Below are positions 415 to 55,551 of a stretch of 64,000 nucleotides of DNA, in pieces (the stretch's first letter is position 1; each line of letters begins with the position of its first letter). Source of the DNA: a virus; the IMG/VR virus record IMGVR_UViG_3300044568_004391, positions 64,001-128,000 of that record. The stretch is one strand, 5' to 3'. Under the pieces are notes generated by a model. That model saw only the letters and a list, made by a program, of their open reading frames with translations. It was not told the DNA's origin and searched no databases. A program made the translations under genes and the position numbers.

Positions 415-777
415 ATGGGAAGAATTACAACAGACGAAAATGAAAAACAAAGGATTTTGAATCTTCATTTGGAAGCAACCAAAAGACATTATTTGAAAGA
501 AGATGATGGAAAATTACCACAATCAACGTTGTCAAATGCAACTATAGAAGAAGGTGATGAGGTTTATATTATTGATGGTAAATACACAATCGATGCTGCG
601 GATGATGGAGTGAGTGTTGCTGGTACATCTGATTTGAGAGGTAAACAATTTACCAAAAATGACATCATTAAAATACCGGTGGGTAAAAGATTGTATTTTG
701 GAAATCCAAAAAGAGTAGGTCTCGTTGCCTTGGGAGAAAAAGATGGTTCAATATATGTTCACAAACCAAAAGATTGA
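415..777 (+). CDS. hypothetical protein with N-terminal leader (..EKQRILNLH..YLKE)
   Basis: ORF; leader resembles those of 774, 28567, 31600 and 33057. Confidence 0.7.
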   Translation: MGRITTDENEKQRILNLHLEATKRHYLKEDDGKLPQSTLSNATIEEGDEVYIIDGKYTIDAADDGVSVAGTSDLRGKQFTKNDIIKIPVGKRLYFGNPKRVGLVALGEKDGSIYVHKPKD

Positions 778-779
778 AC

Positions 780-1460
780 ATGAAATTTCAAATTACGGAG
801 TCCGAGAAAAAGAGGATCAAAGATCTTTATCAAATCAATGAACAAGGTTGGATGACTCATTTTTTTGATTTACTCGACGATGGGTCAACTTCATTAGATT
901 CTGATGGGAAAGGATCATCATCCGATTCTGATGACAAAGGATCGTCATCCGATTCTGATGGGAAGAAATATTCTTCCACAAACTATGATTCCGGGAATAT
1001 AATTGAACATATAAAAAAATGGGAGGGTTTTGTTGGATTTACTTATGACGACGCCGTATATCCATCAAAACCTGTTAAAGTAGGTGAGCGTTGTAAAGGT
1101 AGGTGTACTATAGGTTATGGTATTACGGATAAAAAAAAGGCAAAACCAGGTGCGACAGTCACTAAAGAACAAGCGGAACAATGGTTGAAAGATGTTGTCA
1201 ATCAAACATGCATACCTTGTATAGAAAGATGGCAGAAAAGAAATAAAATTGAAATATCAAAACCAATATTTGACGCTTTGATCGATGTTGTTTATAACAA
1301 AGGGTGTGATGGATTTACAACTTCACGAATTGCTAAAAAACTTAAAAATAAGGATATTGAAGGAGCGGGTGAGGAACTAAAAAATTGGCAAGGTTGGGGT
1401 GGAAATCAAAAAAGAAGAGACGCGGTATATAAAAACTTCTACACAAAAGGAATTAAATGA
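780..1460 (+). CDS. phage lysozyme (GH24-like) fused to leader and Ser/Asp/Gly linker
   Basis: IKKWEGF, CTIGYG, FDALIDVVYNKG and RR motifs; ATG at 780. Confidence 0.75.
   Translation: MKFQITESEKKRIKDLYQINEQGWMTHFFDLLDDGSTSLDSDGKGSSSDSDDKGSSSDSDGKKYSSTNYDSGNIIEHIKKWEGFVGFTYDDAVYPSKPVKVGERCKGRCTIGYGITDKKKAKPGATVTKEQAEQWLKDVVNQTCIPCIERWQKRNKIEISKPIFDALIDVVYNKGCDGFTTSRIAKKLKNKDIEGAGEELKNWQGWGGNQKRRDAVYKNFYTKGIK
897..965 (+). repeat. 27-bp coding tandem repeat (DSDGKGSSS, about 2.5 copies)
   Basis: gattctgatgggaaaggatcatcatcc / gattctgatgacaaaggatcgtcatcc / gattctgatgggaag. Confidence 0.85.
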
Positions 1461-2863
1461 AAAAAGTAATTAACGAAGGTGGGATTAGAGACATAAACGC
1501 ATTATCCAAAAGATATCCGAAAGCAAAGATATATTTTCACCAAGATTTGGATGGTGTAACTTCTGCGTTGGGTATGAAGGAATATTTGGAATCAAATGGT
1601 ATAAAGGTCGTTGATGCTGAAATCATTCAATATGGTGATAAAGAGTTCTCGATCAAGAAGTTGGAAGCTGAAGGTGATATTATGCCAGTTTTAGTTGATT
1701 TTGCTCACGGAAAACCGATGTTCAAAATTCATACAGACCACCACGACAGACAAGCCGGAGCAGAGGACACCAAATCCAAATCATTCAGATCTGCAAGATC
1801 AAATATTGAAACAATATCACAAGTTCTGTCACCGAAAGATATATTTCCATCTGACGACATAAAGTTAATCTCCACCGTTGATTCTGCCAACTTCAAACCC
1901 TACGGAATTAAACCCCGTGACGTTATGAATTATATCCTTAAATTAGATAAGGAGGGAACTTTGGAGAAGAACAAGATGGCTCTTGGGTTGTTAACCAACA
2001 AACTTCTTTTGGCATATAAAAACAAACCAAACTTTATGGAGGAATTGGTTATGACTTCTTCACCTTCTTTGATGAATATCTATCAGAACATCAAAAAAAT
2101 TGCAAAGGAAAGAAGGTTTGCTTCACCCGAAGAAATGGCTCAAAACCAAGAAACATATATCAAATCTCAAAAAGAATCACCCAATGTCGTTTTTGAAGAT
2201 GGAATCATAAAACAATATGGTGGTGGTTCATTATTCAAACCAGGTTCTTATGACAGATATACACCATTCGAAAACTATCCCGACGCAAATTTCTTAATTA
2301 TTGCTTGGCCTTTGGGATTGGTTCAGGCAAGTTGTAATCCATTTAAAGAAGACAGAGCTCTCAAAGGTATTGACTTGGGTGAAATTAAAGATGAGATCCT
2401 CGAAGAAAACAAGGGTTGGATGAAAAAGGAAATGGTTCCTCTCTCAACTCTAAAATGGATCTCTGAAACATCTGTTGGTCCTGAAAGTGTTGGTTTTACA
2501 TCTTCCGACTTGAAAGCGTTTTATATGGACAAAGTTCAAGCGGGGAACGAAGAATATCTTTCAAGATTGGATCAAATTATGGATAAAAAGTTCTCTGAAC
2601 TAAATGAAGATGAACTTACAATATTAGATAGTTTTGCAATTCCATTTTATGACTTGGTGGTGGAAAACTCTGGAGGTCACAAATGTATAACTAATCTCTC
2701 AGGTCTTAATTATTTGAGAAGATCCAAGAGACCACCACAAGGTGATTATAAAAGAGAACCAGGAACGGAAGCCAAGTTCGTTCAAGGGGTGAAATTCTTC
2801 CAAGATCAGTTCTTTGAAAAACTGAAGGGTAGAATTCAAGGGGTTGAGACGGAATCGGAATAA
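1457..2863 (+). CDS. DHH-family phosphoesterase
   Basis: HQDLDG, VDF, HTDHH and C-terminal SGGH motifs; short leader MKKVINE. Confidence 0.7.
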   Translation: MKKVINEGGIRDINALSKRYPKAKIYFHQDLDGVTSALGMKEYLESNGIKVVDAEIIQYGDKEFSIKKLEAEGDIMPVLVDFAHGKPMFKIHTDHHDRQAGAEDTKSKSFRSARSNIETISQVLSPKDIFPSDDIKLISTVDSANFKPYGIKPRDVMNYILKLDKEGTLEKNKMALGLLTNKLLLAYKNKPNFMEELVMTSSPSLMNIYQNIKKIAKERRFASPEEMAQNQETYIKSQKESPNVVFEDGIIKQYGGGSLFKPGSYDRYTPFENYPDANFLIIAWPLGLVQASCNPFKEDRALKGIDLGEIKDEILEENKGWMKKEMVPLSTLKWISETSVGPESVGFTSSDLKAFYMDKVQAGNEEYLSRLDQIMDKKFSELNEDELTILDSFAIPFYDLVVENSGGHKCITNLSGLNYLRRSKRPPQGDYKREPGTEAKFVQGVKFFQDQFFEKLKGRIQGVETESE

Positions 2864-3204
2864 ATGACAAAGGGATCGCCTTCTTTGATATTGTGATCCT
2901 GACAATAACCACCGGGTAATTCCAAGACGATATTTCCAACTCCTGTGTATGACTCACATTGATCAGAATTACAGGGGGGACAATCGTGATGTATTTTATT
3001 TACAACATTATTTTTGATGAAAATTATATCCAATGGAATGATACAATTTTTCATCCAAAAACTATGAGATTTTCCATTCATCAAGAACACCATTGAATCA
3101 AAACCTTCAAATGTTTTATCCATCATGCCGTTCTCAATTTGATATGGTGTTGCACAAATCTTTGACTTTAGTATATTATTTTTTATTTTGGTTTTTACAA
3201 TCAT
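2836..3204 (-). CDS. DUF192 family protein
   Basis: SFWMKNCIIPLDIIFI and VLELPGG motifs. Confidence 0.8.
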   Translation of the reverse strand: MIVKTKIKNNILKSKICATPYQIENGMMDKTFEGFDSMVFLMNGKSHSFWMKNCIIPLDIIFIKNNVVNKIHHDCPPCNSDQCESYTGVGNIVLELPGGYCQDHNIKEGDPFVIYSDSVSTP

Positions 3205-3210: not shown

Positions 3211-3756
3211 TTAATTACGTCTAAAAATAAACCTACCAACATTTATCATACTTCTAATTTCTTCATTTGTATATTTTTCTGATAGGTATTTGTTCAAATG
3301 CAAACTACCATCAACAGATTTGAGATTTTCAAGGGTTTTAATTTTTGTTTCTCTCACATCCAAACTACTACCAACAGATTGAAGTTTTGGAAGGGATTTG
3401 ATTTGTGTTCCTCTCAAACTTAAATAACCAACAACCGATTGAAGATTATCAAGGGATTCGATTGGCGTTCCTTTCAATTCTAAATAACCACCAACCGATT
3501 GAAGATTTCCAAGAAATTTAATTTTTGTCCTTTCCAAATCTAAAAAACCCGTAATCGAAACAAGTCCTTCAAGCCAAGTTAAATCACCATCATAGCCACC
3601 CAAATTTAATTTATCATCCAACGACCATCTTTTGATGTTCTTTTTTTGGATGAAGTTTTTTAGACCTTCAATTCCATCAGGGAAAAAAGAAAGACTTGGT
3701 ATTGCCAATACCTCTTCGGTTTCCTCTTTTAATATTTGTTTAATAAGTGATCTCAT
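3211..3756 (-). CDS. LRR-like protein, 5 x 20-aa repeats, with leader
   Basis: LxNLQSVGGYLxLxxTxIxS repeats; paralog of 16287-18264; ATG at 3756 with TATTTAT at 3762-3768. Confidence 0.8.
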   Translation of the reverse strand: MRSLIKQILKEETEEVLAIPSLSFFPDGIEGLKNFIQKKNIKRWSLDDKLNLGGYDGDLTWLEGLVSITGFLDLERTKIKFLGNLQSVGGYLELKGTPIESLDNLQSVVGYLSLRGTQIKSLPKLQSVGSSLDVRETKIKTLENLKSVDGSLHLNKYLSEKYTNEEIRSMINVGRFIFRRN

Positions 3757-6961: not shown

Positions 6962-7750
6962 CTGAAATTAGAGTTCTTTGATTAAAACCTTTTATTGATG
7001 GTTTAAACGGTTGGCGGCTTAGCGTCGTTAGATAACCCCGGCGACGGGAATAAAGGGTCGGAATTCAGATCTAGCAATCTGATTATATGACCGCAGAACA
7101 TTAGGTGTTCTGACAACTAAGCAAATTACCTACGATAGAAACCCTAAGGGCAACTGCTAAGGGGGTTCTATTATCCTGAGTCCGTGGAATATCAGGGTTG
7201 AGGTGGTGACACCAATAGGAAAAGGTAAAGATGACGGTTCGAAACAACCTGCCAGTTGTTTGAGGGCTGAGCATCAGTCTGAGGGGCATCCGATGGAAAA
7301 TTAATCCGACGTTGTCCTGAAAGGCCGTGAGTGGGCAGACTCACAGAGAGTAGTGTGGTATTCCGTGTTCAAAAGATATGGAGTCACACCGACAGCGCTA
7401 CTTTCCATTTCCACATTTGCTAATTTAATACTTAAATTAAGCAAAAGTCTGTCGGCGTTGTAAACGAAAGGTGTCTAAAACTTCAGACCGTGAGGTCAAT
7501 GAAGTCTCAGATAAGACCGCAAGTCTTTCTGAGTTGATTGTGAAAGTTCTAGTAGGTCGGCCAACCTTTAGTGAGTGAAAACTCAATAGAAACGAGTATT
7601 AGTCGAGTGGTTTACAACGATACGAGTGGTTACCGATAGTAACCGACACTGATCTGATATCACGGGCAATCGTGATGGACAAGTTGGCAACCTGTCGTGG
7701 GGTACACCAACGAAAGACAGATCACTCAAGCGTGTAGTCTCAGCGCAAAC
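6962..7750 (+). ncRNA. large structured ncRNA, GOLLD-like
   Basis: About 790 nt, raised GC, no credible ORF, many GNRA-capped hairpins and long-range helices (7389-95/7449-55, 7456-65/7610-19, 7650-56/7718-24); bounded by promoter and terminator; family assignment from recalled resemblance only. Confidence 0.7.
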
Positions 7751-8426: not shown

Positions 8427-8738
8427 ATGGCAAAATTCGTTATTACCCAAAAACAACTTGACTATATAGTTGAAAATGTTAAAAAAGATAAGTTGAATGA
8501 AGATTCAGATGGTAGTTATATGGCGAAACAACAATTGTTTGTAATTGCTACTATGGCTTATAAGATGTGGGAGATGTTGGACGACAACGCACAACTTGAG
8601 GATTGGATGGAAAGTAAAATCGCTCAGTGTGAACAAAGTGTAAGTTCTGTAGTTAAGGCTTATTTGTATGACGAATTTGATGCCGAATTAAAGGGAATGG
8701 ACACCTTGAGTTATGATGATTTGGTGATAGGACAATAA
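8427..8738 (+). CDS. hypothetical protein with leader (MAKFVITQKQL..KLNE)
   Basis: TATTTAT at 8403; LEDWMESKI motif. Confidence 0.7.
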   Translation: MAKFVITQKQLDYIVENVKKDKLNEDSDGSYMAKQQLFVIATMAYKMWEMLDDNAQLEDWMESKIAQCEQSVSSVVKAYLYDEFDAELKGMDTLSYDDLVIGQ

Positions 8739-16286: not shown

Positions 16287-16886
16287 TCATAGTCTAACAA
16301 TTAAAGCACCAACATCCACCATACTTTTTATTTCTTCATTTGTTTTTGTTGATAAATAACTGTTCAAATAAAGTCTTGCACCAACAGATTTAAGATTTCC
16401 AAAGGATTCAATTTGTGTTCCTCTTATGTCCAAATAACCACCTACGGATTGAAGATTTCCAAGGGATTTAATTGGTGTTTTATTTAAATCCAAAGATGCT
16501 CCAACAGTCCTGAGATTTCCAAGGGATTCAATTGGAGTTTCTTCCAAATTCAAATCATCACCAACAGATTGAAGATTTCCAAGAGATTCAATTTGTGAGT
16601 TGTATAGGTTCAAATAACCATCAACCGATATAAGATTTTTGAAGGATTTGATTTCTGTTCCATATGCATTAAAATCACCACTAATAGAAACAAGACCTTC
16701 AAGCCAAGTTAAATCACCTTTATATCCACCCAAATCCAAATCATCATCCAACGACCATCTTGTGATGTTATTTTTTTTGATGAAGTTTTTTAGTCCTTCA
16801 ACTCCATCAGGGAAATAGTGAAGACCAGGTATTACAAATATCTCTTCGGTTTCCTCTTTTAATATTTTTTTGATTAGGTCTTTCAT
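16287..16886 (-). CDS. LRR-like protein, 6 x 20-aa repeats, with leader
   Basis: MKDLIKKILKEETEE followed by LGNLQSVGG repeats. Confidence 0.85.
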   Translation of the reverse strand: MKDLIKKILKEETEEIFVIPGLHYFPDGVEGLKNFIKKNNITRWSLDDDLDLGGYKGDLTWLEGLVSISGDFNAYGTEIKSFKNLISVDGYLNLYNSQIESLGNLQSVGDDLNLEETPIESLGNLRTVGASLDLNKTPIKSLGNLQSVGGYLDIRGTQIESFGNLKSVGARLYLNSYLSTKTNEEIKSMVDVGALIVRL

Positions 16887-17545
16887 TATCTAATAATTCT
16901 ACCACCAACATTTATCATACCTCTAATTTCTTCATCTGTATAATTCTTCAAAACGTATTTGTTTAACCACAAATTAGTACCAACATATTGAAGTTTTGGA
17001 AGGGATTCAATTTGTGTTCCTCTTATATCTAAATAATCACCAACCGACTGAAGATTTGGAAGGTCTTTAATTGGTGTTCCCTCCAAATCCAAACTACCAC
17101 CAACCGATTGAAGGTTTCCAAGGTCTTTAATTTGTGTTTTTCTTAAATCCAACCCACCACCAACCGATTGAAGATTTGGAAGGGATTCAATTTCTGTTCC
17201 TCTTAAATGTAAAAAACTACCAACCGATTGAAGATTTGGAAGGGATTTAATTTGTGTGCTTCTTATATCTAAATAACCACCAACAGATTGAAGATTTCCA
17301 AGAAATTTAATTTCTGTCCTTTCCAAATCCAAAAAACCCGTGATCGAAACAAGTCCTTCAATCCAAGTTAAATCATCTCCATATTCACGGAAATCCACAT
17401 CATCATCCAACGACCATCTTTTGATGTTCTTTTTTTGAATGAAGTTTTTTAATCCGTAAATTTCATCAGGAAAAAAACTAAGACTAGGTATTACAAATAC
17501 CTCTTCGGTTTCTTCTTTTAATATTTTTTTGATTAAGTCTTTCAT
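16886..17545 (-). CDS. LRR-like protein, 7 x 20-aa repeats, with leader
   Basis: Same leader and repeat unit; tandem paralog. Confidence 0.85.
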   Translation of the reverse strand: MKDLIKKILKEETEEVFVIPSLSFFPDEIYGLKNFIQKKNIKRWSLDDDVDFREYGDDLTWIEGLVSITGFLDLERTEIKFLGNLQSVGGYLDIRSTQIKSLPNLQSVGSFLHLRGTEIESLPNLQSVGGGLDLRKTQIKDLGNLQSVGGSLDLEGTPIKDLPNLQSVGDYLDIRGTQIESLPKLQYVGTNLWLNKYVLKNYTDEEIRGMINVGGRIIR

Positions 17546-18264
17546 GGTCTTAAAATTCCACCACCAACATTTATTATATTTCTAATTTCTTCATTTGTAT
17601 ATTTTTCTGAAAGGAATTTGTTTAAAAATAAATCATATTTAACCGATTGAAGATTTTCAAAGGATTCAATTTGTGTTCTTCTTATATCTAAAGAACCACC
17701 AACAGATTGGAGTTTTGGAAGGGATTTAATTTTTGTTCCTCCTATAAACAAATTACCACCAACCGATTGAAGGTTTCCAAGGGATTTAACTTGTGTTCCA
17801 GTTAAATCCAAATGTTTACCAACATATTTAAGATTTGGAAGGGATTCTATTTGTGTTCCTCTTGTATCTAAAGACCTACCAACCGATTGAAGATTATCAA
17901 GGGATTTAATTTGTGTGCTTCTTATATCTAAATAACCACCAACCGATTGGAGATTTGGAAGGGATTTAATTTGTGTGCTTTTTATATCTAAATAACCACC
18001 AACCGATTGAAGATTATCAAGGGATTTAATTTTTTTTCCTTCCAAATCCAAATAACCACTAATGGAAACAAGACCTTCAAGCCAAGTTAAATCATCTCCA
18101 TATTCACGGAAATCCAAATCATCATCCAACGACCATCTTTTGATGTTCTTTTTTTGAATGAAGTTTTTTAATCCGTCAATTTCATCAGGAAAAAAACTAA
18201 GACCAGGTATTACAAATATCTCTTCGGTTTCTTCTTTTAATATTTTTTTGATTAAGTCTTTCAT
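17542..18264 (-). CDS. LRR-like protein, 8 x 20-aa repeats, with leader
   Basis: Same leader; 60-bp DNA periodicity visible at 17640-18060; TATTTAT at 18273-18279. Confidence 0.85.
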   Translation of the reverse strand: MKDLIKKILKEETEEIFVIPGLSFFPDEIDGLKNFIQKKNIKRWSLDDDLDFREYGDDLTWLEGLVSISGYLDLEGKKIKSLDNLQSVGGYLDIKSTQIKSLPNLQSVGGYLDIRSTQIKSLDNLQSVGRSLDTRGTQIESLPNLKYVGKHLDLTGTQVKSLGNLQSVGGNLFIGGTKIKSLPKLQSVGGSLDIRRTQIESFENLQSVKYDLFLNKFLSEKYTNEEIRNIINVGGGILRP

Positions 18265-22742: not shown

Positions 22743-23243
22743 ATGAATCTACAAGAACAACTATCAAAAATGAAATCAATGATGGGGATCATTAAGGAAG
22801 ATGATAATCAAAGAGTTCATTTTGATATGCAAGATTTATTGGACAGAGGAATTATCTTTATAACACAAGCCCACGATTTATCTACAGGTGAAATGATTCC
22901 ACCACAAGAAGATCCTCAAACAGGTGAAATATACAACGATTCAACAAATTTAATTACCTTATGGAATGTAACTCATCCAGAAGAAGGTGAACAAGATTTT
23001 ATTTCAAAGGCATTAGAACATCCAAGACCTGACCAAATTTCATATTGGCAAAACGCGCAAAATCAATTAAGTCAGGAAAAATATGATCAGATATTAAGAA
23101 GTATTGAATTACAAAATAAAAACTCAGCCGAACTAACGGAGGGAGAATTAACTGAAAGATGTTGGAAAGGATATACCCAAAAGGGTATGAAAACTATGTT
23201 CGGAAAGAAATACCCTAACTGTGTAAAGAAAACAAAAAAATGA
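22743..23243 (+). CDS. leader-bearing protein with C-terminal CWKGY..PNCV mini-domain
   Basis: Start MNLQEQLSKMKSMMGIIKE, matching the 23240 leader. Confidence 0.75.
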   Translation: MNLQEQLSKMKSMMGIIKEDDNQRVHFDMQDLLDRGIIFITQAHDLSTGEMIPPQEDPQTGEIYNDSTNLITLWNVTHPEEGEQDFISKALEHPRPDQISYWQNAQNQLSQEKYDQILRSIELQNKNSAELTEGELTERCWKGYTQKGMKTMFGKKYPNCVKKTKK

Positions 23244-23620
23244 AATTACAAGAACAATTATCAAGAATGAAATCAATGATGGGGATCATCAAAGAGAATG
23301 AGGCAACTGAACTCATACAAGATATGGTGGATGAGGTTTTGGAGTCATTAAGAAAGTATGCTAATGATGCGGATGACTTAGAAGACATAACAACCATAAG
23401 AATAATTAACTCCATAGATAAAATCCAAGTAACCGATTTCACAACAAATAGGTTTGAACCCAATATACATCTTGTAATTTATCAAAACAAAGACATCTCA
23501 AACTATGATTTAGTATTGGAACAAATGTATTCAAAGTTCAATACCCTCATCCCAAATCTATTAATACAGATAGATGATGTGATCAACAGCGAAACAGGAC
23601 AATCTGTATACGGATTTTAA
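23240..23620 (+). CDS. leader-bearing hypothetical protein
   Basis: MKLQEQLSRMKSMMGIIKE. Confidence 0.75.
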   Translation: MKLQEQLSRMKSMMGIIKENEATELIQDMVDEVLESLRKYANDADDLEDITTIRIINSIDKIQVTDFTTNRFEPNIHLVIYQNKDISNYDLVLEQMYSKFNTLIPNLLIQIDDVINSETGQSVYGF

Positions 23621-26128: not shown

Positions 26129-26269
26129 AACAGATAAATATACAAAAAAAATAATTGATAAAAAAATTGGATCTTAATTTTTTTCGCCGTAACTTAGCAT
26201 CATCTGACTAACCGAGAGGGGAGCAAGTATACTCCAACCTGCTTTATATTTTTTATAAAGGGGTGGGGA

Positions 26270-26626: not shown

Positions 26627-26627
26627 T

Positions 26628-28503: not shown

Positions 28504-28641
28504 CCCCTCCCTTATTGGTGAGGGGTTTTTTATTTTTTATTATATTTATTTGTAAATAATAATTCTATGACACAACGACTAATATTAACAGAAGAAGAAA
28601 AAAGAAACATCCAAAAGATGTATGGTATGATTAATGAACAA
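28504..28641 (+). repeat. cassette head: terminator + TATTTAT + leader-coding DNA
   Basis: Promoter and leader nearly identical to about 29040-29142; terminator nearly identical to 29472-29517. Confidence 0.85.
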
Positions 28642-28980
28642 CCTGATGACCAATTAAAAATGCTTCAAAATGAAGGTTATATTGATGTAACAGATTCTGT
28701 TCATAAAGGCGAATATGTATTAGAAATTCCTGATGGTAAAAACTATAAAGTCAAAGGTGGTGGTTATCAATTTAAGCTTTTAACAGATGATAATAAAGAA
28801 ACAGGTTATCTTTTTTTATCTGAAAATGGAGTAAGAACACCTTCTATGGAGAAAGGTCCATTCTATGTTGAGGATAATGGAAAAATGATTCGTCTTAATC
28901 AAGAATTTATAGGGATTTTAGGTCAAAATGGAAGGATTTTGTATAACCAAAAATTAAATCAAGTTAAAATTGAAAGATAA
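28567..28980 (+). CDS. leader-bearing hypothetical protein
   Basis: MTQRLILTEEEKRNIQKMYGMINEQ followed by unique cargo. Confidence 0.75.
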   Translation: MTQRLILTEEEKRNIQKMYGMINEQPDDQLKMLQNEGYIDVTDSVHKGEYVLEIPDGKNYKVKGGGYQFKLLTDDNKETGYLFLSENGVRTPSMEKGPFYVEDNGKMIRLNQEFIGILGQNGRILYNQKLNQVKIER

Positions 28981-29067: not shown

Positions 29068-29469
29068 ATGGCACAACGACTAATATTAACAGAAGAAGAA
29101 AAGAGAAACATCCAAAAGATGTATGGTATGATTAATGAACAAGAAGAGACCAATTTCGATAAAAATTACTTTATGTCTAAAAAGACGGGAACTGTAACCT
29201 TCGGTTCTCAAGCCATTCCATTAGAAGTTGACGGGATTAAGGTTTCTGACTACAAGACCCAATGGAAAAGAAATTTCAAAATAGAGAATATAGGGGGTAG
29301 AGGATTTCAACCTGGGGTTTTCACATGGACATACGGAGAGGAAGTTCCAACGGGAGTTATGGGTTATAGTACTGATTCTGATGTACGTACATCAGAACCA
29401 GGTATATCAATAAAAGATAGTGCAAATAAAGAAGTTGGCACACTTATTTTTGAGTTACCTTGGGATTAA
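29068..29469 (+). CDS. leader-bearing hypothetical protein
   Basis: MAQRLILTEEEKRNIQKMYGMINEQ followed by different cargo. Confidence 0.75.
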   Translation: MAQRLILTEEEKRNIQKMYGMINEQEETNFDKNYFMSKKTGTVTFGSQAIPLEVDGIKVSDYKTQWKRNFKIENIGGRGFQPGVFTWTYGEEVPTGVMGYSTDSDVRTSEPGISIKDSANKEVGTLIFELPWD

Positions 29470-29559: not shown

Positions 29560-29970
29560 ATGAGAAAAGTTAGATTGACGGAATCAGAATTGGTCCGTAT
29601 CATAGAAAGAATTGTAAAAGAAGAATCCTTAACGGGAGGTAGATCAAAACCAGAATTCAAAGGTAGATTGGCTAAATCCAAAAAAGATTTTGGGATGGGA
29701 TGGAGAGATGAATATGACAGCCCATCTGAAGGACCAGGTGAGAGATCAGGTTCGATTGTGAGTTATGAAGATTTTATGCGTTTCGCAGAAGACCACCCCG
29801 ATTTGGCTGAGTTTTATTTTGGTTGGGCCGGTGATGAATCAGGTGAAGTTTTTGACAAATATGGTGGTGTAGATCTATTTAATCCTGAAGAAGATATGGC
29901 AAATCTTGAAGAGATGAAAAGAAAAGTCAGAGTTATGGAAAATAAACTCAAAAGGAAAATGGGAAGATAA
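29560..29970 (+). CDS. leader-bearing hypothetical protein
   Basis: MRKVRLTESELVRIIERIVKE; TATTTAT at 29511. Confidence 0.75.
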   Translation: MRKVRLTESELVRIIERIVKEESLTGGRSKPEFKGRLAKSKKDFGMGWRDEYDSPSEGPGERSGSIVSYEDFMRFAEDHPDLAEFYFGWAGDESGEVFDKYGGVDLFNPEEDMANLEEMKRKVRVMENKLKRKMGR

Positions 29971-29974: not shown

Positions 29975-30382
29975 ATGAAAAAAGTTGTAAGATTAACGGA
30001 AAATGATTTGATTAGATTAACCAAGAGAGTTCTACTCGAATCGAAAGCTCAAGAGGCGGTAGACACCGCCTTTGAAAAATTTGAATCAGGTCAAAAACCT
30101 CCAGCAGGTATGGTTCAAAATGTAAAAAAATGTTTGGAGAATACACCTCTCAGAAATATTGTTTTGGCTGGGGGAGATGTTGCTCAGTTAATTTTGAGTG
30201 TATTAGCATTGACGTTACTTGTCATGGTTGGTTGGGAAGCAGCATTGGTTGTGGCGGGGATTCATGGGGCACTTAGTATTTTAGAACACACATATAAAAT
30301 AAAAGGTGTAAATGTTTTTGCAAAATCAGAAAAAGATATAAAATTTTTCGTTAATTGTTTACAATCAAAAGGGGTAATTTAA
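29975..30382 (+). CDS. leader-bearing protein with hydrophobic hairpin
   Basis: MKKVVRLTENDLIRLTKRVLLE; internal TM-like stretch. Confidence 0.7.
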   Translation: MKKVVRLTENDLIRLTKRVLLESKAQEAVDTAFEKFESGQKPPAGMVQNVKKCLENTPLRNIVLAGGDVAQLILSVLALTLLVMVGWEAALVVAGIHGALSILEHTYKIKGVNVFAKSEKDIKFFVNCLQSKGVI

Positions 30383-31599: not shown

Positions 31600-32028
31600 A
31601 TGGGAAAAAGAATTGTAATTTCAGAAAATGAGAAAGTAAAAATTCGTAAGTTATATGGATTGTCTGAAGGACTTGATTTTGAGCAGATCATGCTTGGGAT
31701 CGGGTCCATCATTTTTTTAAGAAAGTTTTTTCAAGGACTTCGTTCTGATCCCAAATTCAAAGCATTATTTCTTCGTGATGAAGATGTGGAACAGAATATC
31801 AAACACTTGGATAAGGTGATGGAAAGATATTTGAATGGTCTCGATGAGTATTACAGTGATATTGAAGAATATGACCGGGTGGAAATTCGTGATATATATG
31901 AAAACGATATTAAACCTTTGCTCAGAGAAAAGAAACTTGTGGATATGGAAGATATTGTGAATTATTTGAGTTACAAACTAGATTATCTTAACAAACAAAA
32001 GGAAAAGAAATTCTTTTCCAAAGATTGA
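31600..32028 (+). CDS. leader-bearing hypothetical protein
   Basis: MGKRIVISENEKVKIRKLYGLSE; TATTTAT at 31589. Confidence 0.7.
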   Translation: MGKRIVISENEKVKIRKLYGLSEGLDFEQIMLGIGSIIFLRKFFQGLRSDPKFKALFLRDEDVEQNIKHLDKVMERYLNGLDEYYSDIEEYDRVEIRDIYENDIKPLLREKKLVDMEDIVNYLSYKLDYLNKQKEKKFFSKD

Positions 32029-32074: not shown

Positions 32075-32422
32075 ATGAAAAAAATAGTTAGACTTACAGA
32101 ATCCGATCTCGTTAAAATTATCGAACGAGTAATCGAAGAGGGAAAGACAGATAAAGGAGTTAAGGAAAAGGATGTTGACGTAAAAATTGAAACATTTCAA
32201 GATTCCATAAAAAACCATCTCAAATCAAAAGATAATGTTACGGTTAAAAAGGTGGGGGATGATTTTGAAATTCATTCTGATGGTGATCATATCGGTCAGG
32301 TTATGTTTAGGAAAGAAGGGATTACAGTAAAAAAAGTTGGAAACAAGTTTGGAAAGAAATTCGATTTCAACGAACTCGGGAATATAAAAAAGGAAATTAA
32401 TCGGATAATAAAAGAAGATTGA
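32075..32422 (+). CDS. leader-bearing hypothetical protein
   Basis: MKKIVRLTESDLVKIIERVIEE; TATTTAT at 32054. Confidence 0.75.
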   Translation: MKKIVRLTESDLVKIIERVIEEGKTDKGVKEKDVDVKIETFQDSIKNHLKSKDNVTVKKVGDDFEIHSDGDHIGQVMFRKEGITVKKVGNKFGKKFDFNELGNIKKEINRIIKED

Positions 32423-32979: not shown

Positions 32980-33056
32980 TAAACAATTTAAATTTTGAAC
33001 CCTCCCCCTTCAAGGAGGGTTTTTTTATTTTCGATATATTTATAAAGAAAAATAAG

Positions 33057-34472
33057 ATGTATATTTCTGAATCTGAAAAGAGGCATATCTTAAAACTCTA
33101 TAATCTATTGATTGAAGATACAAGACCTCTGCAAAAACTCAGAGAATGTAAAATTTCGAGTGACGGTCGATATATTGTCTATGATAATCAAGTTTACCTA
33201 ACATCTACGGGGGAACTTGCTCCAATATCTGAAGCGTGGTCATTAAGTGACATTCTTCACACAGGTGCGGACTTAGTATCTATGGGTATGGATTTTGTTA
33301 TTCCTGGATCAGGTGCTGTAATCGACGTTCTCAATGCATTGAGTTATATAATCGAGGCTCAATTCGTTGATCCCGAAAAGAAAGATTCTCTTTATATAAT
33401 GGCGGCAATAACTTTCGGTTTCGTCATCCTTCCTGGTCCACTACAAGCCGTGGCGGTTCCGTTGAAAAGAGCGGTTAAGACAGGTGTTGGATTGGCAAGT
33501 AAAACCGTAGTTGCAGGGTTGAAAATAATTGGGAAATCATTGGATGTTTTACTCGTTAAGATTCCTGAGTATATTGGTCAGGCTCTAAAATCCAAAATGG
33601 GTAAAAGATTATTGGGAAAATGGGGTGATCGATTGAGTGGTTTTATAAGTGGGTTTACTTCAAGAATAAAGACTATATTAAGATCAATTGGATCTGCACC
33701 AACTGCCACCAGGGCTGGTACTCAAACTGCAACTAGAAAATTACTTCAAACGCTCTCTAAAGCTCAACCACAATTTCTCAAAAATTTCATGTCCAAATTA
33801 CCTAAGATTAATAAGGGTAAGATGGTCTTAAGAAAGTTGGGTTTTGCACAAGGTCGATCCTATAGATACGTAGGTAAGTCAGGTAAAGCGTCAACCGCAA
33901 CGATAGTGGGTATTACAGATTCTACGGTAAGAATTTCTTTTAAAACAGGATCCAAAGTTGCTGAATCTACAGTTCCTATAAATACATTTATTTCACGAGC
34001 TGTCGGAGCTCCTTGGATAAGAAGGGGTGCAGGAGTCACAGTTCCATTTTTCATAAAGAGATTTGCGGATTGCTTGACTTCAGATGGAAGTGTGGATGAA
34101 GCGGCGTTGGAAAAATTATCCGATATAAATCCTGATGTGACATCAGAAGAGTCATTGAATTACTTAAGGGAAGAAGTTGCAAGTTACGAAGGGGAAACTG
34201 GTCAATATACAGAAAACGAAAATGCCCAATTATTTCAAGAAGCTTTGAAAAAATTGGAATATGATCTTGGTAATTTTGGGCCCAATAAGGATGGTATCGA
34301 TGGTAAATTTGGACCAAAGACCAAATCGGCTTTGGAAAAATTCCAAACAAAAAACGGTTTAGAGGATTCTCTGGGTAAAATGGACAGAATAACGGCAAAT
34401 ACTCTTGCCGATAGATTACCGGATGATGATGAAACTGCAATTAAATTAAGAAAATTAGTTTACCCGGATTAG
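33057..34472 (+). CDS. leader-bearing protein with pre-toxin-like hydrophobic region and C-terminal peptidoglycan-binding domain
   Basis: MYISESEKRHILKLYNLLIE; DFVIPGSGAVIDVLNALSY; FQEALKKL..DGIDGKFGPKTKSALEKFQ. Confidence 0.7.
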   Translation: MYISESEKRHILKLYNLLIEDTRPLQKLRECKISSDGRYIVYDNQVYLTSTGELAPISEAWSLSDILHTGADLVSMGMDFVIPGSGAVIDVLNALSYIIEAQFVDPEKKDSLYIMAAITFGFVILPGPLQAVAVPLKRAVKTGVGLASKTVVAGLKIIGKSLDVLLVKIPEYIGQALKSKMGKRLLGKWGDRLSGFISGFTSRIKTILRSIGSAPTATRAGTQTATRKLLQTLSKAQPQFLKNFMSKLPKINKGKMVLRKLGFAQGRSYRYVGKSGKASTATIVGITDSTVRISFKTGSKVAESTVPINTFISRAVGAPWIRRGAGVTVPFFIKRFADCLTSDGSVDEAALEKLSDINPDVTSEESLNYLREEVASYEGETGQYTENENAQLFQEALKKLEYDLGNFGPNKDGIDGKFGPKTKSALEKFQTKNGLEDSLGKMDRITANTLADRLPDDDETAIKLRKLVYPD

Positions 34473-36061: not shown

Positions 36062-37633
36062 TTACAAATTATCTCTCACTGATTCATTTATCTCTTTATT
36101 ACTAGGGTTAGGATAAACATCAAAATCAAATTTTTCTTTATCGTAGAAGGTGGTTTCGTTTACTATATCCCAAAACGCACTCATAATACTCAACCGATCA
36201 TCAGAACGATGAAAATTCTGATCAAATAACTCTTGAACAAAATCGTCATCCAATAACGTGAGTGTTTGGGTTAAATCAACTTCCAACTTCAAACCCTCCT
36301 CTGTGAGTTCTATAACATGTCCATATTCACTAAGTGAATTTTTGAGTCGATCATATAATTTACCACTAACATCCGATTCTTCAGCATTTATTACCCCCCA
36401 CCTAATTGCGTTTTCAATATCTCCATCATCGTACTCTTGAAATATTTCATATAAATTACCATCTTCTTCTTCACTGATGGTGACACCTTGTTTTTTAGCT
36501 TTTTCTATGAGTTTGGAACGAATAATCTGATCGGTTTTTGAATCTGATACATACTTAAAGAACCCTTCAATATCCACATGGCTTGAATCTCCCCAATATT
36601 CAAAATTTCCATTTACAATTTTTACAACGGGGTGTTCAAATGTGTATTCGTACTGTATTCTATTATCAGGCACCTTTATTCGTTTTTGAATTCTTATAGG
36701 ATCCAAACCACCAACTAAGTACCATATATCCTCTAATTCAATATTCAAAACTTCGGACAATGGGAAGTCCTCTGGTTTTATGCGACCTTCTTTAAATAAT
36801 TTATATCTTGTATAACCATCTGTAAATAAATCCGGTCTATCTTCCAATAACTTTTTCATTTCTTCTTCAGTTAAATCGGATATTTTAAAATCACTTGACG
36901 ATTGATATTCTCTCCCGAAATCTTTGATAAAATACTCACCATCTTCATCTGTGAGATAAAGAAGATCAATTATGTATTTGTGATATTTGCTTTGTGGTTT
37001 TGAGTTTTTCGGACCTTTCATCTGATAAATCACCCCGTCAGGACTAATTGCTGCCGTGAGGTGAGATTTATTAAGTTTGAATTTGGGGTTCAGAGTTTTT
37101 ACTTCCCTCAAAGAATATATGTTCCCTGATGAACTTCTACCACAATGTCCCATCCTTTCACACTCTTCGGGCGAGTTACTTGTCTCTAAATCCGCCCAAT
37201 AAAATCCATCTCCATTTTCATTTCTAAAATCCAATATGACAGGATTTTTTTCAACGTAATTTATATCACCCTGACCTACTTCAAGGGAGTCGTGCCATTC
37301 TCTTGATTTTTTATATAACTCATCGAAGGTGAGAATCATAAACGGTTTTACATTTCCATCCAAACCAACTCTGATCCAATCCATTATAGATGTCATGGTA
37401 TTCATAGCTGTGGATAAAGAAAGTGAATTAATTCTACTCAATGCTTCTTCTTTTGATTCACCTCTGTGTTTTTGAACTCTTTCTATAAATTTATTTGCCA
37501 ACCAAACCGACAAAGGCCCGGCAATTCTATCTACCATTTCCGCATTTTCTGCACTAAGTCCAACCTTATCTATTAGGATTTTTTTCTTGGATGCTTCTAA
37601 AATAATAGATGTTAAATTATCTAACAGTTTCAT
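36062..37633 (-). CDS. PcfJ-like domain protein with leader (MKLLDNLTSIILE)
   Basis: SREWHDSL, EECERMGHCG, IYSLR and QMKGPKNSKP; TATTTAT at 37648-37654. Confidence 0.6.
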   Translation of the reverse strand: MKLLDNLTSIILEASKKKILIDKVGLSAENAEMVDRIAGPLSVWLANKFIERVQKHRGESKEEALSRINSLSLSTAMNTMTSIMDWIRVGLDGNVKPFMILTFDELYKKSREWHDSLEVGQGDINYVEKNPVILDFRNENGDGFYWADLETSNSPEECERMGHCGRSSSGNIYSLREVKTLNPKFKLNKSHLTAAISPDGVIYQMKGPKNSKPQSKYHKYIIDLLYLTDEDGEYFIKDFGREYQSSSDFKISDLTEEEMKKLLEDRPDLFTDGYTRYKLFKEGRIKPEDFPLSEVLNIELEDIWYLVGGLDPIRIQKRIKVPDNRIQYEYTFEHPVVKIVNGNFEYWGDSSHVDIEGFFKYVSDSKTDQIIRSKLIEKAKKQGVTISEEEDGNLYEIFQEYDDGDIENAIRWGVINAEESDVSGKLYDRLKNSLSEYGHVIELTEEGLKLEVDLTQTLTLLDDDFVQELFDQNFHRSDDRLSIMSAFWDIVNETTFYDKEKFDFDVYPNPSNKEINESVRDNL

Positions 37634-39337: not shown

Positions 39338-39784
39338 ATGAAAAAGGTATTACATTTATCCCAAAACGAATTGAAGAATAAAATCAAATCTTTAATTCAA
39401 GAACAAGAGGAAACAGAGTCAAACGACTTTCCAACCATAGTTTCACAACTTTTGTTTTCTCAAACTCAAGTTCATATATTCCATCTTCAGACAAAATCCT
39501 TTGCGGAACACAATGCGTTACAGGATTACTATGATGGAATAGATGATTTGGTTGACACCTTAATAGAATCCTATCAGGGTGAGTTCGGCATTATTGAAAA
39601 TTACAAATCATTTAAGGTAGAATCTTATCAAGACACAGATCAGGTTCTTGCTTATTTCGATATGATCCTAAATTTAGTAAAAAAGGGAAGGGAAACCATT
39701 GAATCAACTCATCTTCAAAACATCATGGATGAGATTATTACCCTTGTTACGAAAACAATGTATAAACTGAAGTTCTTGAAATGA
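39338..39784 (+). CDS. ferritin/Dps-like protein (DUF5856-like) with leader
   Basis: HIFHLQT.SFAEH.AL..YY....DLVD.LIESYQG and YKLKFL. Confidence 0.75.
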   Translation: MKKVLHLSQNELKNKIKSLIQEQEETESNDFPTIVSQLLFSQTQVHIFHLQTKSFAEHNALQDYYDGIDDLVDTLIESYQGEFGIIENYKSFKVESYQDTDQVLAYFDMILNLVKKGRETIESTHLQNIMDEIITLVTKTMYKLKFLK

Positions 39785-39882: not shown

Positions 39883-40302
39883 ATGAAATTCAAAAAAAAA
39901 GATATAAAATATTTTTTGGATCTCTATAAAAAGATGGGTGTACCCAAAGTGGATGCTGAAGACAATTTGAAAAAACTTATGAGGTGGGTGGAAAACCTAC
40001 CAAAGAAAATTATTCTTTACAGAATCATATTTGTCAATTCCGAAGATGAAATTATCCGTGATATACCGGGTTCACACTACATGATGGATAAAGAACATCT
40101 TATAGATACACATTATATTAACATTAAAAATTCACCTCAAGGTAGTGAGTGTTATCTTTTAACTGTAGAAGCAGACAAGAAGATGATTGATCAATTCCAA
40201 ACAATAGCGACAAATATTGTTTACCCAACTGAAAAAGAAATCACCCTAAAAAATAAAGGAGAGGGGATAAACTATATAGAACACAAAAAAATCAATGAGT
40301 AA
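39883..40302 (+). CDS. hypothetical protein
   Basis: ORF; TATTTAT at 39828. Confidence 0.6.
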   Translation: MKFKKKDIKYFLDLYKKMGVPKVDAEDNLKKLMRWVENLPKKIILYRIIFVNSEDEIIRDIPGSHYMMDKEHLIDTHYINIKNSPQGSECYLLTVEADKKMIDQFQTIATNIVYPTEKEITLKNKGEGINYIEHKKINE

Positions 40303-40645
40303 AAAATTAAATTTATCTGATAAGGAAATTCAGGAAATCAGAAAGAAACACGAAACCGAAAGAAACAACCACGAGTTTTTCAGTAAGAAGGTGTTTGAAC
40401 CTAAGAAGAAACTTGATGAACAGTCGGTGGGATCGGTTGCGTCTTCAGGTGTATCCAAATCCAAAGGTGTTGAAGAGTCAGACGGAACCATAAGTTTCAG
40501 TGCTGAATCACCACAAAGAGAAATTGCCGCTAAAATAGCATTGAATAATGCAACTGTAGAAGGGTATAGATTACCATCAAAACCCAGTAAGGTTGAATCT
40601 ACCGATAAAGGGTATAAAGTTACATATTATTTTAATAAGTTATGA
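40295..40645 (+). CDS. leader-bearing hypothetical protein
   Basis: MSKKLNLSDKEIQEIRKKH..KLDE. Confidence 0.65.
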   Translation: MSKKLNLSDKEIQEIRKKHETERNNHEFFSKKVFEPKKKLDEQSVGSVASSGVSKSKGVEESDGTISFSAESPQREIAAKIALNNATVEGYRLPSKPSKVESTDKGYKVTYYFNKL

Positions 40646-51030: not shown

Positions 51031-52038
51031 ATGATTGAAATAATAAATCGAGATATTGATAAAATCTGTAAAAAAATAGATTTCTCCCGGATTCAAAATA
51101 AAAAAATATTAGTGACAGGGGCATCAGGATTAATTGGTGTTTATTTAATTTCTTGTTTAAAAATTTTCAAAAAAAAAAATAATTTAGAAATTTACGCTTG
51201 GATTAAAAATGAAATTGACGAAAATTTTATTGAAATTTTTTCAGGTTGTAATGTAATAAGGAAGGATCTGACAGATGAAAATTCATTTTATGATCTACCC
51301 AAATTTGATATTATAATTCATTCCGCTGGTTATGGTCAACCAATTAAATTTATGGATGATAAAATCAGAACAATAAAATTAAATACAATATCGACTATAA
51401 AATTATTTGAAAATTTAAAAGATGATGGTAAATTTTTATTTGTAAGCTCAAGTGAAGTTTATAGTGGGTTGGATCGTCAAAATGTTTCAGAAACCGAAAT
51501 AGGGACAACAAATACTGACCATGCTAGATCTTGTTATATTGAAGGTAAAAGATGTGGTGAATCTATTTGTTATTCCTACTCAGAAAAAGGTTACGATGTA
51601 AAGATAATTAGATTGAGTTTAGCATATGGACCGGGTACAAAAAAAAATGATCAGAGGGTTTTAAATTCACTAATTCAAAAAGCTTTGGAAAATGATGTAA
51701 TTACATTATTAGATCACGGAACTTCAATTAGAACTTTTTTATATATTACGGATGTTATTGAAATGTTTTGGAATATAATTTTATTTGGAAAAGAAAAGAT
51801 GTATAATGTTGGTGGTGAATCTATTATGAGTATCCTGAATTTATCTAAATTAATTGGTGAAGAATTAGGTAAGAATATTAAAGTACCAGCAACAGATAAC
51901 AAACTTGTTGGTAATGCAAACTTTGTAAATATATCGATTAAAAAATACTTGAATGAGTTCGAAAAAAAGGATTTTGTTTCAATTAAAGAAGGATTGAGGA
52001 ATACAATCGAATGGCAAAAAAAATTATACGAAAAATGA
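51031..52038 (+). CDS. NAD-dependent epimerase/dehydratase (UDP-glucuronate decarboxylase-like)
   Basis: TGASGLIG, SSSEVY and RSCYIEGKR motifs. Confidence 0.8.
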   Translation: MIEIINRDIDKICKKIDFSRIQNKKILVTGASGLIGVYLISCLKIFKKKNNLEIYAWIKNEIDENFIEIFSGCNVIRKDLTDENSFYDLPKFDIIIHSAGYGQPIKFMDDKIRTIKLNTISTIKLFENLKDDGKFLFVSSSEVYSGLDRQNVSETEIGTTNTDHARSCYIEGKRCGESICYSYSEKGYDVKIIRLSLAYGPGTKKNDQRVLNSLIQKALENDVITLLDHGTSIRTFLYITDVIEMFWNIILFGKEKMYNVGGESIMSILNLSKLIGEELGKNIKVPATDNKLVGNANFVNISIKKYLNEFEKKDFVSIKEGLRNTIEWQKKLYEK

Positions 52039-53183
52039 TAAAATTAGTAAGTGATACAATAGACAGAGGTGATATAGAAAGCCTCATAGAATGGTTAAAT
52101 CAGGACCCAATCCCTAGACTTACAAAAGGTGAACTTACTTTACAATTGGAGTCTATGTGGGCAAAAAAGATTGGAACCAAATACTCTGTTTTTTTGAATT
52201 CAGGTTCCTCTGCTATTTTTCTAACTTTATTGGCATTAAAAGAAACGAATAGATTAAAAAATTTAAAAATAATCGTACCTGCTTTGAGTTGGGTTACTGA
52301 CGTTAGTTCTCCAATGATTTTGGGTTATGAAACTTTTATGTGTGATTGTAATTTGAATGACTTATCATGTGATCTGGATAAATTAGAGAATTTATTTAAA
52401 TCAAAGAACCCTTCTGTTTTCATTTTGGTCTCTCCTTTAGGTTTAGTTCCCAAAATGAAAGAAATAGTAGAGTTATGTGAAAAATATGATGTTTTATTAT
52501 TGGAAGATGTCTGTGAGAGTATGGGATCCAAATATCAAGACACTTACTTGGGTAATTTCGGATTCGCCTCATTTTTTTCAACATATTTTGGACATCATTT
52601 ATCTACGATAGAAGGTGGATTTATTAATACAAATGATGATGATTTTTATCATGCGTTGTTAATGTTAAGAAGTCACGGATGGGACCGTGATTTACCTTCG
52701 AAATTTCAGAAAAAACTTAGAAAAGAATATAATTGTGATGAATTCAACTCTCTTTACAATTTTTATTTACCTGGTATGAATTTAAGATCAACTGATTTAC
52801 AAGCTTTTTTGGGTATTCGAGCGGTAGGTAAGTTAGATAGATTTGCAGAGGAAAGGAGGAAAAACTTCTTCAAGTATAATAATCTAATTTCTAAAAACAT
52901 CCTCTCGTTGAGTGAAAGAGAGGGGGATTTTATATCCAATTTTGCAATGCCTGTACTAAATCACAACAGAAAAAAAATTGTTGATAATCTAATTAAGGAA
53001 CAAATAGAGGTTAGACCATTAATTGCCGGAAATATGGCTCACAAACCGATGTGGAAAGGTGATAGACATGATTTAGAGAATTGTGACTTAATCGATAAAT
53101 TTGGTTTTTACTTACCGAACCATCAAGATTTAACTGACGATGAAATTTATAAAATTTCAAAAATTATAAATGAAAATGGATAA
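52035..53183 (+). CDS. DegT-family protein with His at the PLP-Lys position (ColD-like 3-dehydratase)
   Basis: NSGSSA, EDVCESMG, STYFGHHLSTIEGG and LRSHGWDR motifs. Confidence 0.8.
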   Translation: MIKLVSDTIDRGDIESLIEWLNQDPIPRLTKGELTLQLESMWAKKIGTKYSVFLNSGSSAIFLTLLALKETNRLKNLKIIVPALSWVTDVSSPMILGYETFMCDCNLNDLSCDLDKLENLFKSKNPSVFILVSPLGLVPKMKEIVELCEKYDVLLLEDVCESMGSKYQDTYLGNFGFASFFSTYFGHHLSTIEGGFINTNDDDFYHALLMLRSHGWDRDLPSKFQKKLRKEYNCDEFNSLYNFYLPGMNLRSTDLQAFLGIRAVGKLDRFAEERRKNFFKYNNLISKNILSLSEREGDFISNFAMPVLNHNRKKIVDNLIKEQIEVRPLIAGNMAHKPMWKGDRHDLENCDLIDKFGFYLPNHQDLTDDEIYKISKIINENG

Positions 53184-54659: not shown

Positions 54660-54687
54660 AAAAAGGTGGTCATTTGACCACCTTTTT
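54659..54687. terminator. bidirectional intrinsic terminator
   Basis: aaaaaggtggtca-tt-tgaccaccttttt. Confidence 0.8.
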
Positions 54688-54880
54688 AATCCATCATATC
54701 GATGTGTTTCCTAATTAGTTGTTGAAAAAAATCTGAATTACTTTTCCATTCTTTCCAAACATCAAAATCTTGTAATTCCTCTAACATAGTTTGGGGAATC
54801 AGAACAAAACCTTCAGGTACAAGATGATCAAACTTCTTGTACTTATAGTTTTTGATTGATTCTTGAATATTAACGTCCAT
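54686..54880 (-). CDS. small hypothetical protein
   Basis: ORF with LQDFDVWKEWK; TATATTTG upstream at 54973-54980. Confidence 0.55.
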   Translation of the reverse strand: MDVNIQESIKNYKYKKFDHLVPEGFVLIPQTMLEELQDFDVWKEWKSNSDFFQQLIRKHIDMMD

Positions 54881-55047
54881 TTTCTTTGTAACAATAAAAC
54901 CTCAATACCATAAGCGTAACCAGTGCCGAAATGAAAATTACCAGGAATGTTGTCATGTAAGTTTATTTTCTACAAATATAATCTAAATTTATTCAGAATC
55001 CAAATATTAATCAAAGAATTAATATATTTATAACAAAAAGATTTGTC

Positions 55048-55551
55048 ATGCCAAAAGTTATAAAACTTAACGAAAATGATTTAAGAAAAATTGTTGACAG
55101 GGTTATCACCGAATCCAACAAGCACGATGTTAAATGGACCAAAAACTTCAAAAAATATTTTAAACCCAACCAATACGAGCTCGAGGATAGGGATCAAAGA
55201 GAACTTCTTGAACTTATTGATGATATCAGAAGAGAACTCGACCGTTATGAGGATGGTGTTGTAACCATTAAACTCAAGGGTGGTGAATCCAAAACTCCAA
55301 ACGTTGTTAATGTAAGAGGTGAAGATCAAGTTCACCCACCTGGTGCAATGGCAAAGAGAAGATGTCATTGGACTAAGAAGTTCCTTCAAAATCACGGAGG
55401 TGATCTTTTAAGGGGTGTTAATTATGTAACGGACAAGCCTTTTATCAACGGCCCCGATCATGATCCATCTAAGAGAATTAATTCTCCCGAATATTTGGAC
55501 AATCAGTTTGTCGATCTTCTTGTTACCGTCAACGGTAATGTGAGAAGATAA
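55048..55551 (+). CDS. leader-bearing hypothetical protein (weak OmpA-C-like pattern)
   Basis: MPKVIKLNENDLRKIVDRVITE; TATTTAT at 55025. Confidence 0.7.
   Translation: MPKVIKLNENDLRKIVDRVITESNKHDVKWTKNFKKYFKPNQYELEDRDQRELLELIDDIRRELDRYEDGVVTIKLKGGESKTPNVVNVRGEDQVHPPGAMAKRRCHWTKKFLQNHGGDLLRGVNYVTDKPFINGPDHDPSKRINSPEYLDNQFVDLLVTVNGNVRR

Follow-up and report, generated by a model that had tools for sequence, protein, structure and literature searches.

About one in ten proteins of a large uncultured T4-type phage starts with a short leader resembling the peptides that target proteins to a phage head. The phage is represented by the IMG/VR virus record IMGVR_UViG_3300044568_004391 (151,984 bp, 34% G+C, 52% complete according to CheckV; referred to below as G000), and the window is the whole 64,000-nt stretch analyzed here, from base 64001 to base 128000 of that record. 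In this record, inside and outside the window, one of four related amphipathic leaders is found on about 25 proteins whose bodies are unrelated. These leaders are portable, selected as peptides and phage-specific, end at a conserved glutamate, and co-occur with a T4-type head module. We consider it probable that they are prohead-targeting propeptides, specific to the phage lineage and equivalent in function to the capsid-targeting sequence (CTS) of T4.

The consensus of the main leader, class A, is MKKIVRLTESDLxRIVKRVIxE. Class A′ has the consensus [IL][TS]ExE[KY]xxIxxLYxhxE (h, hydrophobic) and a longer form that ends in RxYLKE, class B (MKxLIKKILKE) resembles the second half of class A, and class D reads L[QR]E[EQ][IL]SR[IM]K..M. 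Robust members, named by the window position of their start, are 29560, 29975, 32075, and 55048 (class A); 415, 780, 28567, 29068, 31600, and 33057 (A′); 3756, 16886, 17545, 18264, and 37633 (B); and 22743 and 23240 (D). The first 28 residues of all 178 G000 proteins of at least 90 residues were compared all-versus-all, and pairs with unrelated remainders were kept. This gave 47 similar N-terminal pairs, compared with 14, 12, and 11 pairs in the same test on C-terminal, central, and residue-41 segments, an excess of about fourfold. The largest N-terminal similarity cluster is the leader family (18 proteins, a few of them joined by spurious links), and genuine signal peptides of the record fall into separate small clusters. 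The leaders themselves lack the hydrophobic core of at least 10 residues after a basic N-region that marks Sec, Tat, and lipoprotein signals, and are charged amphipathic helices. A 22-column hidden Markov model (HMM) of the leader found nine N-terminal and two internal copies in the 152-kb record.

An earlier reading of the window from its letters (the sequence-only reading) had proposed a portable tag with exchangeable cargo and had listed 21 starts, all of which translate as written. It had also taken an [ILV]-x-E near the N-terminus as a sign of membership, which proved too common to serve alone: the motif ends at residues 9–30 in 39% of all record proteins, and in 37% when that interval is shifted by 40 residues. 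By itself [ILV]-x-E is thus uninformative. The significant point is that the glutamate is the last conserved residue of the leader. It occupies position 22, in V-I-x-E, in 75 of 76 class A leaders, and the information content, 3–4 bits per column through Glu22, falls to 1.9 bits at the next residue (Q/N/S/D/G) and to less than 0.7 bits beyond it.

The reach of class A was examined in metagenomic data. A 115-aa leader protein used as query returned full-length homologues and many proteins that shared only MKKIVRLTESDLVKIVKRVI.E, followed by unrelated sequence. A 30-column class A profile was compared with 1.84 billion representative proteins and matched 8,467 clusters at E ≤ 1e-3 (476 at E ≤ 1e-10), so that the portable tag and the exchangeable cargo of the sequence-only reading are borne out by thousands of N-terminal copies on unrelated bodies. 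The best match started at or before residue 12 in 141 of the best 150 clusters, and most of the remaining nine had a second, internal leader copy between two modules. Many metagenomic proteins have two or three leaders between modules, and internal class A copies were also present inside longer G000 proteins (KMKLTENELIDLIERIVKEE and KMKLNENDLPKV; record 32934–34130 and record 51994–52305 (−)), which look like two-module fusions. No Pfam family was found for 80 of 82 leader A matches of at least 100 residues.

In a set of 34 distinct leader DNA sequences, each invariant Leu, Ser, or Arg position is encoded by four to six different codons, and selection therefore operates on the peptide sequence. 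Matches to a strict degenerate DNA pattern of the leader start numbered more than 120 loci in IMG/VR vs. three metagenome-assembled genome (MAG) contigs among 185,579 prokaryotic species (one genome each), and the tag is therefore viral. Two of the three MAG contigs are labelled Bacteroidota. A tblastn search of the 25-residue leader against cultured phages gave only chance-level matches, a search of IMG/VR for close relatives of a virion protein found none, and the string LTESDL was not found in the literature.

An AlphaFold2 (AF2) model built from an alignment of the 32075 family predicted a helix at residues 9–24 with moderate confidence, a disordered stretch at residues 25–31, and an alpha/beta body with a predicted local distance difference test (pLDDT) score of 80–88. 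In this model the conserved glutamate lies at the end of the helix, directly before the linker. The leader helices are amphipathic, with hydrophobic moments of 0.6–0.8, which was within the top 1–1.5% of shuffles for three of four leaders tested.

Orthologous bodies carry different leaders in different phage lineages, and always retain h-x-E at the joint. The body of the 32075 family stands behind either the 22-residue leader or a short MK[HY]LK.F...NE leader, and the Glu-Gly joint (E22-G23) was invariant in all 23 homologues with either one. The DHH-like protein has three different leaders, with the junctions VINE|GG in G000 (1457), LLVE|TG in G001, and FVNE|EVG in G002. In G000 (33057) the peptidoglycan-binding protein starts with an A′ leader (LLIE|D), and its G008 orthologue, which is 66% identical, with an A leader (IITE|H). 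Lysozyme homologues of 780 have a class B leader in G001 and a class C leader in G002, and orthologues of the DUF5856 protein in G008 and G003 have other leaders, likewise ending in h-x-E before an acidic linker. Leader usage follows the phage lineage: about 45 proteins are tagged in G008 (N-terminal similarity cluster; classes A, A′, and B), about 20 in G001 (class B), and in G003 at least 64 of 594 proteins start with MK[HY]LK.[YF]..FE or MKYLKRFNE.

Neither the protease family Peptidase_S77 nor a Gp23 capsid gene was found in the 152-kb, 52%-complete G000 record, which is without a head module because it is incomplete. Contigs bearing leader A cluster at about 292–322 kb. Five leader-bearing records (G006–G010) are 98–100% complete and belong to the same lineage as G000, since their core protein is 48–51% identical to the G000 protein over its full length. 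G002 and G003 were rejected as relatives; they have only accessory genes in common with G000 and represent a different T4-type lineage, for which reason the protease argument rests on G006–G010. G003 (476 kb) encodes a Gp23 capsid protein and a fusion of protease and scaffold. G001 is syntenic with G000, and no full-length capsid gene was found in the 59% of its genome examined, only odd Gp23 fragments; at 118523–118994, two short frames (78 and 145 residues) each resemble a different piece of the Gp23 family, in permuted order (65 and 26 bits).

The checks by computation that the sequence-only reading proposed all turned out in its favor. A gp21-like prohead protease, one of the things it suggested looking for, was found in complete genomes of the G000 lineage together with the gp20 portal and the gp23 capsid protein. 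The head-maturation protease family phrog_207 was matched in all five of G006–G010 (E 1e-44 to 1e-47). The head module of G008 has the order portal (Portal_T4, 4e-68), three small proteins, Peptidase_S77 (L221:7773–8498; 4e-22; 79 bits vs. a cut-off of 27), an acidic scaffold-like protein of 508 residues, and Gp23 (2.5e-74); its capsid protein matches 2,575 T4-type phage records. Peptidase_S77 was also detected in three of five further leader-bearing records, and the protease is present in seven of the eight leader-bearing records that are at least 90% complete. The portal gene of G008 (162873–165968, L221:2873–5968) is interrupted by an intein (Intein_splicing, 2.4e-16, residues 159–542).

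Cleavage-type sites of the same kind in capsid and scaffold proteins were another suggested check, and they were present. In seven genomes, five of the same lineage and two of the second T4-type lineage, the N-terminal region of the capsid protein is conserved and the propeptide ends in a conserved [LS]-I-N-E about 17 residues before the start of mature-domain homology. The one scaffold inspected, that of G008, has S-I-N-E-S-T-S-I-N-E-S near its C-terminus. The small G008 proteins between portal and protease occupy the position of the T4 core proteins gp67/gp68, and one of them bears a MKIIITENQYKLIKE leader; [ILV]xE is enriched in that protein and its neighbor (z about 3–4). We dropped [ILV]xE counts in whole scaffold, protease, and capsid proteins as an argument, as they stay within the level set by composition. 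A family of 148-aa proteins with a MKIIITE[NS]QYKLIKEN leader has about nine paralogues in G008 (238754–242671 (−), 78974, 116808, 166712, and 283644), one of them between portal and protease, in the gp67/gp68 position.

Leader genes and head genes also have an upstream motif in common. A TATTTAT-type sequence 10–45 nt upstream of the start codon precedes 10 of 18 leader genes vs. 33 of 188 other genes in G000 (p = 7e-4), and 23 of 33 vs. 71 of 329 in G008 (p = 3.5e-8). The G008 genes for portal, protease, scaffold, and capsid have the motif upstream as well. The motif may be a late promoter.

If the leaders are prohead-targeting propeptides, the amphipathic N-terminal helix of 10–25 residues would dock the nascent protein on the scaffold or core of the assembling T4-type prohead. 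A protease of the gp21 family would then cut after the terminal glutamate of V/I-I/L-x-E, at the end of the helix and ahead of the flexible polar linker, and the mature cargo would remain in the head and be expelled with the DNA. The cargo would include a lysozyme, a peptidoglycan-binding protein, leucine-rich repeat (LRR) proteins, a DHH-like esterase, and many proteins without a known family.

The CTS and the polymorphic internal proteins of T4 are already known. It has been shown that gp21 cuts after L/I-x-E, and that the 10-residue CTS of the internal proteins is both a targeting signal and a cleaved propeptide (PMC9026906, PMC3012670). In the T4 CTS, MKTYQEFIAE, residues 4 and 7 are important in targeting, whereas 8 and 10 are important in processing (PMC9026906). 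As in T4, where the CTS is found on IPI, IPII, IPIII, and Alt, the leaders described here are short conserved N-terminal peptides on unrelated, fast-evolving proteins and end in hydrophobic-x-Glu; the lineage has the head-module families gp20, gp21, and gp23, and the cargo is exchangeable between related phages. They differ in their sequences, the main leader being a 22-residue helix rather than a peptide of 10 residues, and leaders A, A′, B, and D do not resemble MKTYQEFIAE in sequence. A resemblance in pattern is seen only for the short G002/G003-lineage leader, with a hydrophobic residue at position 4, an aromatic residue at position 7, and a terminal glutamate (PMC9026906). The system also differs from T4 in scale and organization: at least four leader classes coexist in one genome, about 9–12% of genes are tagged vs. 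a handful in T4, thousands of clusters are involved, and there are multi-module proteins with internal leaders. The system described here is known from sequence alone.

Several other systems offer partial parallels. The jumbo phages phiKZ, 201phi2-1, and SPN3US pack tens of protein species into the head, as the phage lineage of G000 would under the preferred reading, and have propeptides that are removed after a glutamate (S/A-x-E) by a distant relative of gp21 (PMC9026906, PMC10052503). Their propeptides are long, however, and are not a shared portable tag, and phiKZ-type capsid and protease are only remotely T4-like, whereas those described here exceed the Pfam cut-offs of Gp23 and Peptidase_S77 by a wide margin. 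In phage P1, the Dar antirestriction proteins are accessory proteins that are loaded into the capsid and injected, with N-terminal targeting information, but P1 has neither a shared short tag nor a T4-type protease motif (PMC9024508). In the encapsulation peptides of bacterial microcompartments and the cargo-loading peptides of encapsulins, as proposed for the leaders, diverse cargo is directed into a protein shell by a short amphipathic helix that sits on a flexible linker; the encapsulin shell is HK97-like. These systems are cellular, their peptides are uncleaved and, in encapsulins, mostly C-terminal, and there is no sequence similarity to the leaders.

A number of observations weigh against a prohead-targeting propeptide. 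A strictly N-terminal signal needs no internal copies, such as those in the multi-module proteins; a polyprotein cut at each joint would. The record that contains the window has no head module of its own at 52% completeness, and one 93%-complete leader-bearing record has neither Peptidase_S77 nor Gp23. The tagged proteins of G008, about 9% by motif count (33 of 362 scored) or about 45 by clustering, are far more cargo species than T4 has. In the phage collection, the capsid protein has its best match, at only 46% identity, in an uncultured phage. [ILV]xE is not enriched over composition in the scaffold, protease, and capsid proteins taken whole (z about 1), and the late-promoter role of the TATTTAT motif is putative.

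The strongest alternative, which we regard as unlikely, is that the leader is a non-cleaved docking helix for some other assembly or hub built by the phage (tail, baseplate, a compartment for replication or assembly, or a shared partner protein), with the glutamate capping the helix or forming part of a binding surface. Bacterial microcompartments recruit cargo through N-terminal amphipathic helices of comparable size, which are not cleaved. An amphipathic helix on a flexible linker, lineage-specific and present on many proteins, would suit such a function, as would internal copies lying between modules. The alternative does not account well for the end of conservation at h-x-E, for the same I-N-E at the boundary of the capsid propeptide, for a tagged small protein encoded within the head module, or for the promoter-like motif common to leader and head genes, all of which favor prohead targeting. 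It is improbable that the leader serves to be recognized by a modifying enzyme, a chaperone, or a degradation machine, either like the leader of a ribosomally synthesized and post-translationally modified peptide (RiPP) or as a degron controlling how long accessory proteins persist. Recognition is a typical role of short conserved peptides at the N-terminus, but the Radical_SAM domain (PF04055) was detected neither in G000 nor in four relatives that are complete or nearly so (G006, G007, G008, and G009), while the control genomes were positive in 14 of 14 cases; no conserved enzyme partner was seen besides the head protease, and the end motif shared with the capsid propeptide would be left unexplained. 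Gene shuffling at promoter cassettes is known from T4-type genomes, and the genes 28567 and 29068 share the promoter and 73 of 75 leader bases, identity dropping to 37 of 100 immediately after the INEQ codons. Even so, a functionless peptide, arising as a by-product of recombination at mobile promoter-plus-start cassettes with their common motif 10–45 nt upstream, or of selection on translation starts, is very improbable, because amino acids are conserved across contigs while codons vary freely and internal copies retain the peptide without a promoter, which contradicts any purely DNA-level or translational explanation, and because different leaders all retain the terminal h-x-E.

With prohead targeting as the preferred reading, a broader proposal can be made, though more tentatively: T4-type jumbo phages of freshwater Bacteroidota-like hosts may use a small code of lineage-specific N-terminal address tags and so load tens of rapidly exchanged proteins, about 10% of their genes, into the head, sometimes as polyproteins cut at each tag.

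Four genes of the window encode class A leaders on unrelated bodies. The gene at 29560..29970 (+) has the leader MRKVRLTESELVRIIERIVKE (HMM 28 bits at residue 3), a TATTTAT motif upstream, and a 115-aa body without a match in Pfam or PHROG. Its neighbor at 29975..30382 (+) starts with MKKVVRLTENDLIRLTKRVLLE (30 bits), and its body has only a sub-threshold Pfam match. The leader MKKIVRLTESDLVKIIERVIEE at 32075..32422 (+) precedes the small alpha/beta body predicted by the AF2 model and its homologue alignment, and MPKVIKLNENDLRKIVDRVITE at 55048..55551 (+; 29 bits) follows a promoter-like motif.

Class A′ leaders are more numerous. The lysozyme gene (780..1460 (+)) encodes the leader MKFQITESEKKRIKDLYQINE (32 bits), a Ser/Asp-rich linker, and a phage lysozyme domain (PF00959, residues 80–209, 1.6e-20). 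The genes at 28567..28980 (+), with leader MTQRLILTEEEKRNIQKMYGMINE (35 bits), and 29068..29469 (+), with a leader identical in type according to the HMM and the DNA comparison, have bodies unrelated to each other, and the leader MGKRIVISENEKVKIRKLYGLSE at 31600..32028 (+; 30 bits) stands on a further unrelated body. At 33057..34472 (+), MYISESEKRHILKLYNLLIE precedes a 450-aa body with a C-terminal peptidoglycan-binding domain (PF01471, PG_binding_1, 3e-10). A long A′ leader (..ITTDENEKQRILNLHLEATKRHYLKE) on a small body is encoded at 415..777 (+); the long form ITEEEKxRILGMHxSAxxRxYLKE is also found in G008, and the end of the 415 leader, ...RILNLHLEATKRHYLKE, matches leaders of that relative.

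Class B leaders occur on LRR-like repeat proteins. MRSLIKQILKE was identified by N-terminal similarity at 3211..3756 (−), and MKDLIKKILKE starts three tandem paralogues at 16287..18264 (−) with matches to Recep_L_domain and LRR_4. A class B-like leader, MKLLDNLTSIILE, is followed by a 510-aa body without a family at 36062..37633 (−), and similar N-termini are found at G000 41688 and G008 36940. Two adjacent genes at 22743..23620 (+) have the class D leader M.LQEQLS.MKSMMGIIKE, recognized by N-terminal similarity, and unrelated bodies; the related leader form L[RT]E..SRIKELM is found at 134470, 136931, and 138199 of the record.

Other assignments are less firm. A very short leader, MKKVINE, precedes the DHH-like phosphoesterase at 1457..2863 (+); it holds up in the orthologue junctions, where h-x-E is retained before the body behind different leaders. 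Three genes that the sequence-only reading had listed with the others are weak members: MKKVLHLSQNELKNKIKSLIQE at 39338..39784 (+), A-like and followed by an acidic linker and a DUF5856 domain (PF19174, 5e-23); MAKFVITQKQLDYIVENV..KLNE at 8427..8738 (+), a candidate by resemblance only, with a promoter-like motif upstream; and MSKKLNLSDKEIQEIRKKHETE at 40295..40645 (+), which enters the main cluster through a pairwise score only. As for the cargo names given in that reading, lysozyme, peptidoglycan-binding protein, and LRR-like repeats stand. The supposed ferritin-like protein is the DUF5856 protein, the match of 1457 to DHH falls below the cut-off (19.9 bits), and no Pfam match confirmed a PcfJ-like protein at 37633.

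Two further groups of shared N-termini, neither listed in the sequence-only reading, were noted in the window. In two small tandem sets at 24645–27020 (−), four genes start with M.K[IL][DN]KL[VIA].L[VIM][LI][PS]E[LI] and two with ..MTERQLNTLV[DE]SI; these may be additional leader classes or simply paralogues. Several large proteins encoded at 55616–61178 (+), for example 55616, 58046, and 59040, have classical signal peptides and clearly stand apart from the leader-tagged proteins. At 7346–7746 (+), in a non-coding block downstream of a gene ending at 6813, lies a full-length GOLLD RNA (Rfam RF02032, 263.9 bits vs. a gathering score of 150), and a tRNA-Ser (anticodon TGA) is encoded at 63036–63123 (−).

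Should the leaders serve some purpose other than head targeting, a very abundant phage-specific peptide module would still have to be explained. If they do address the head, the set of proteins injected by a phage would be predictable from its sequence alone. The 22-residue tag would then place a large group of unannotated viral proteins in a functional context that can be tested, and phage engineering might gain new packaging tags from it. The clusters bearing the tag, 8,467 in number, would amount to a catalogue of candidate injected proteins for host takeover and anti-defence. The injected set is the first to act against host defences, and in these phages it would be far larger and more modular than in the T4 paradigm.

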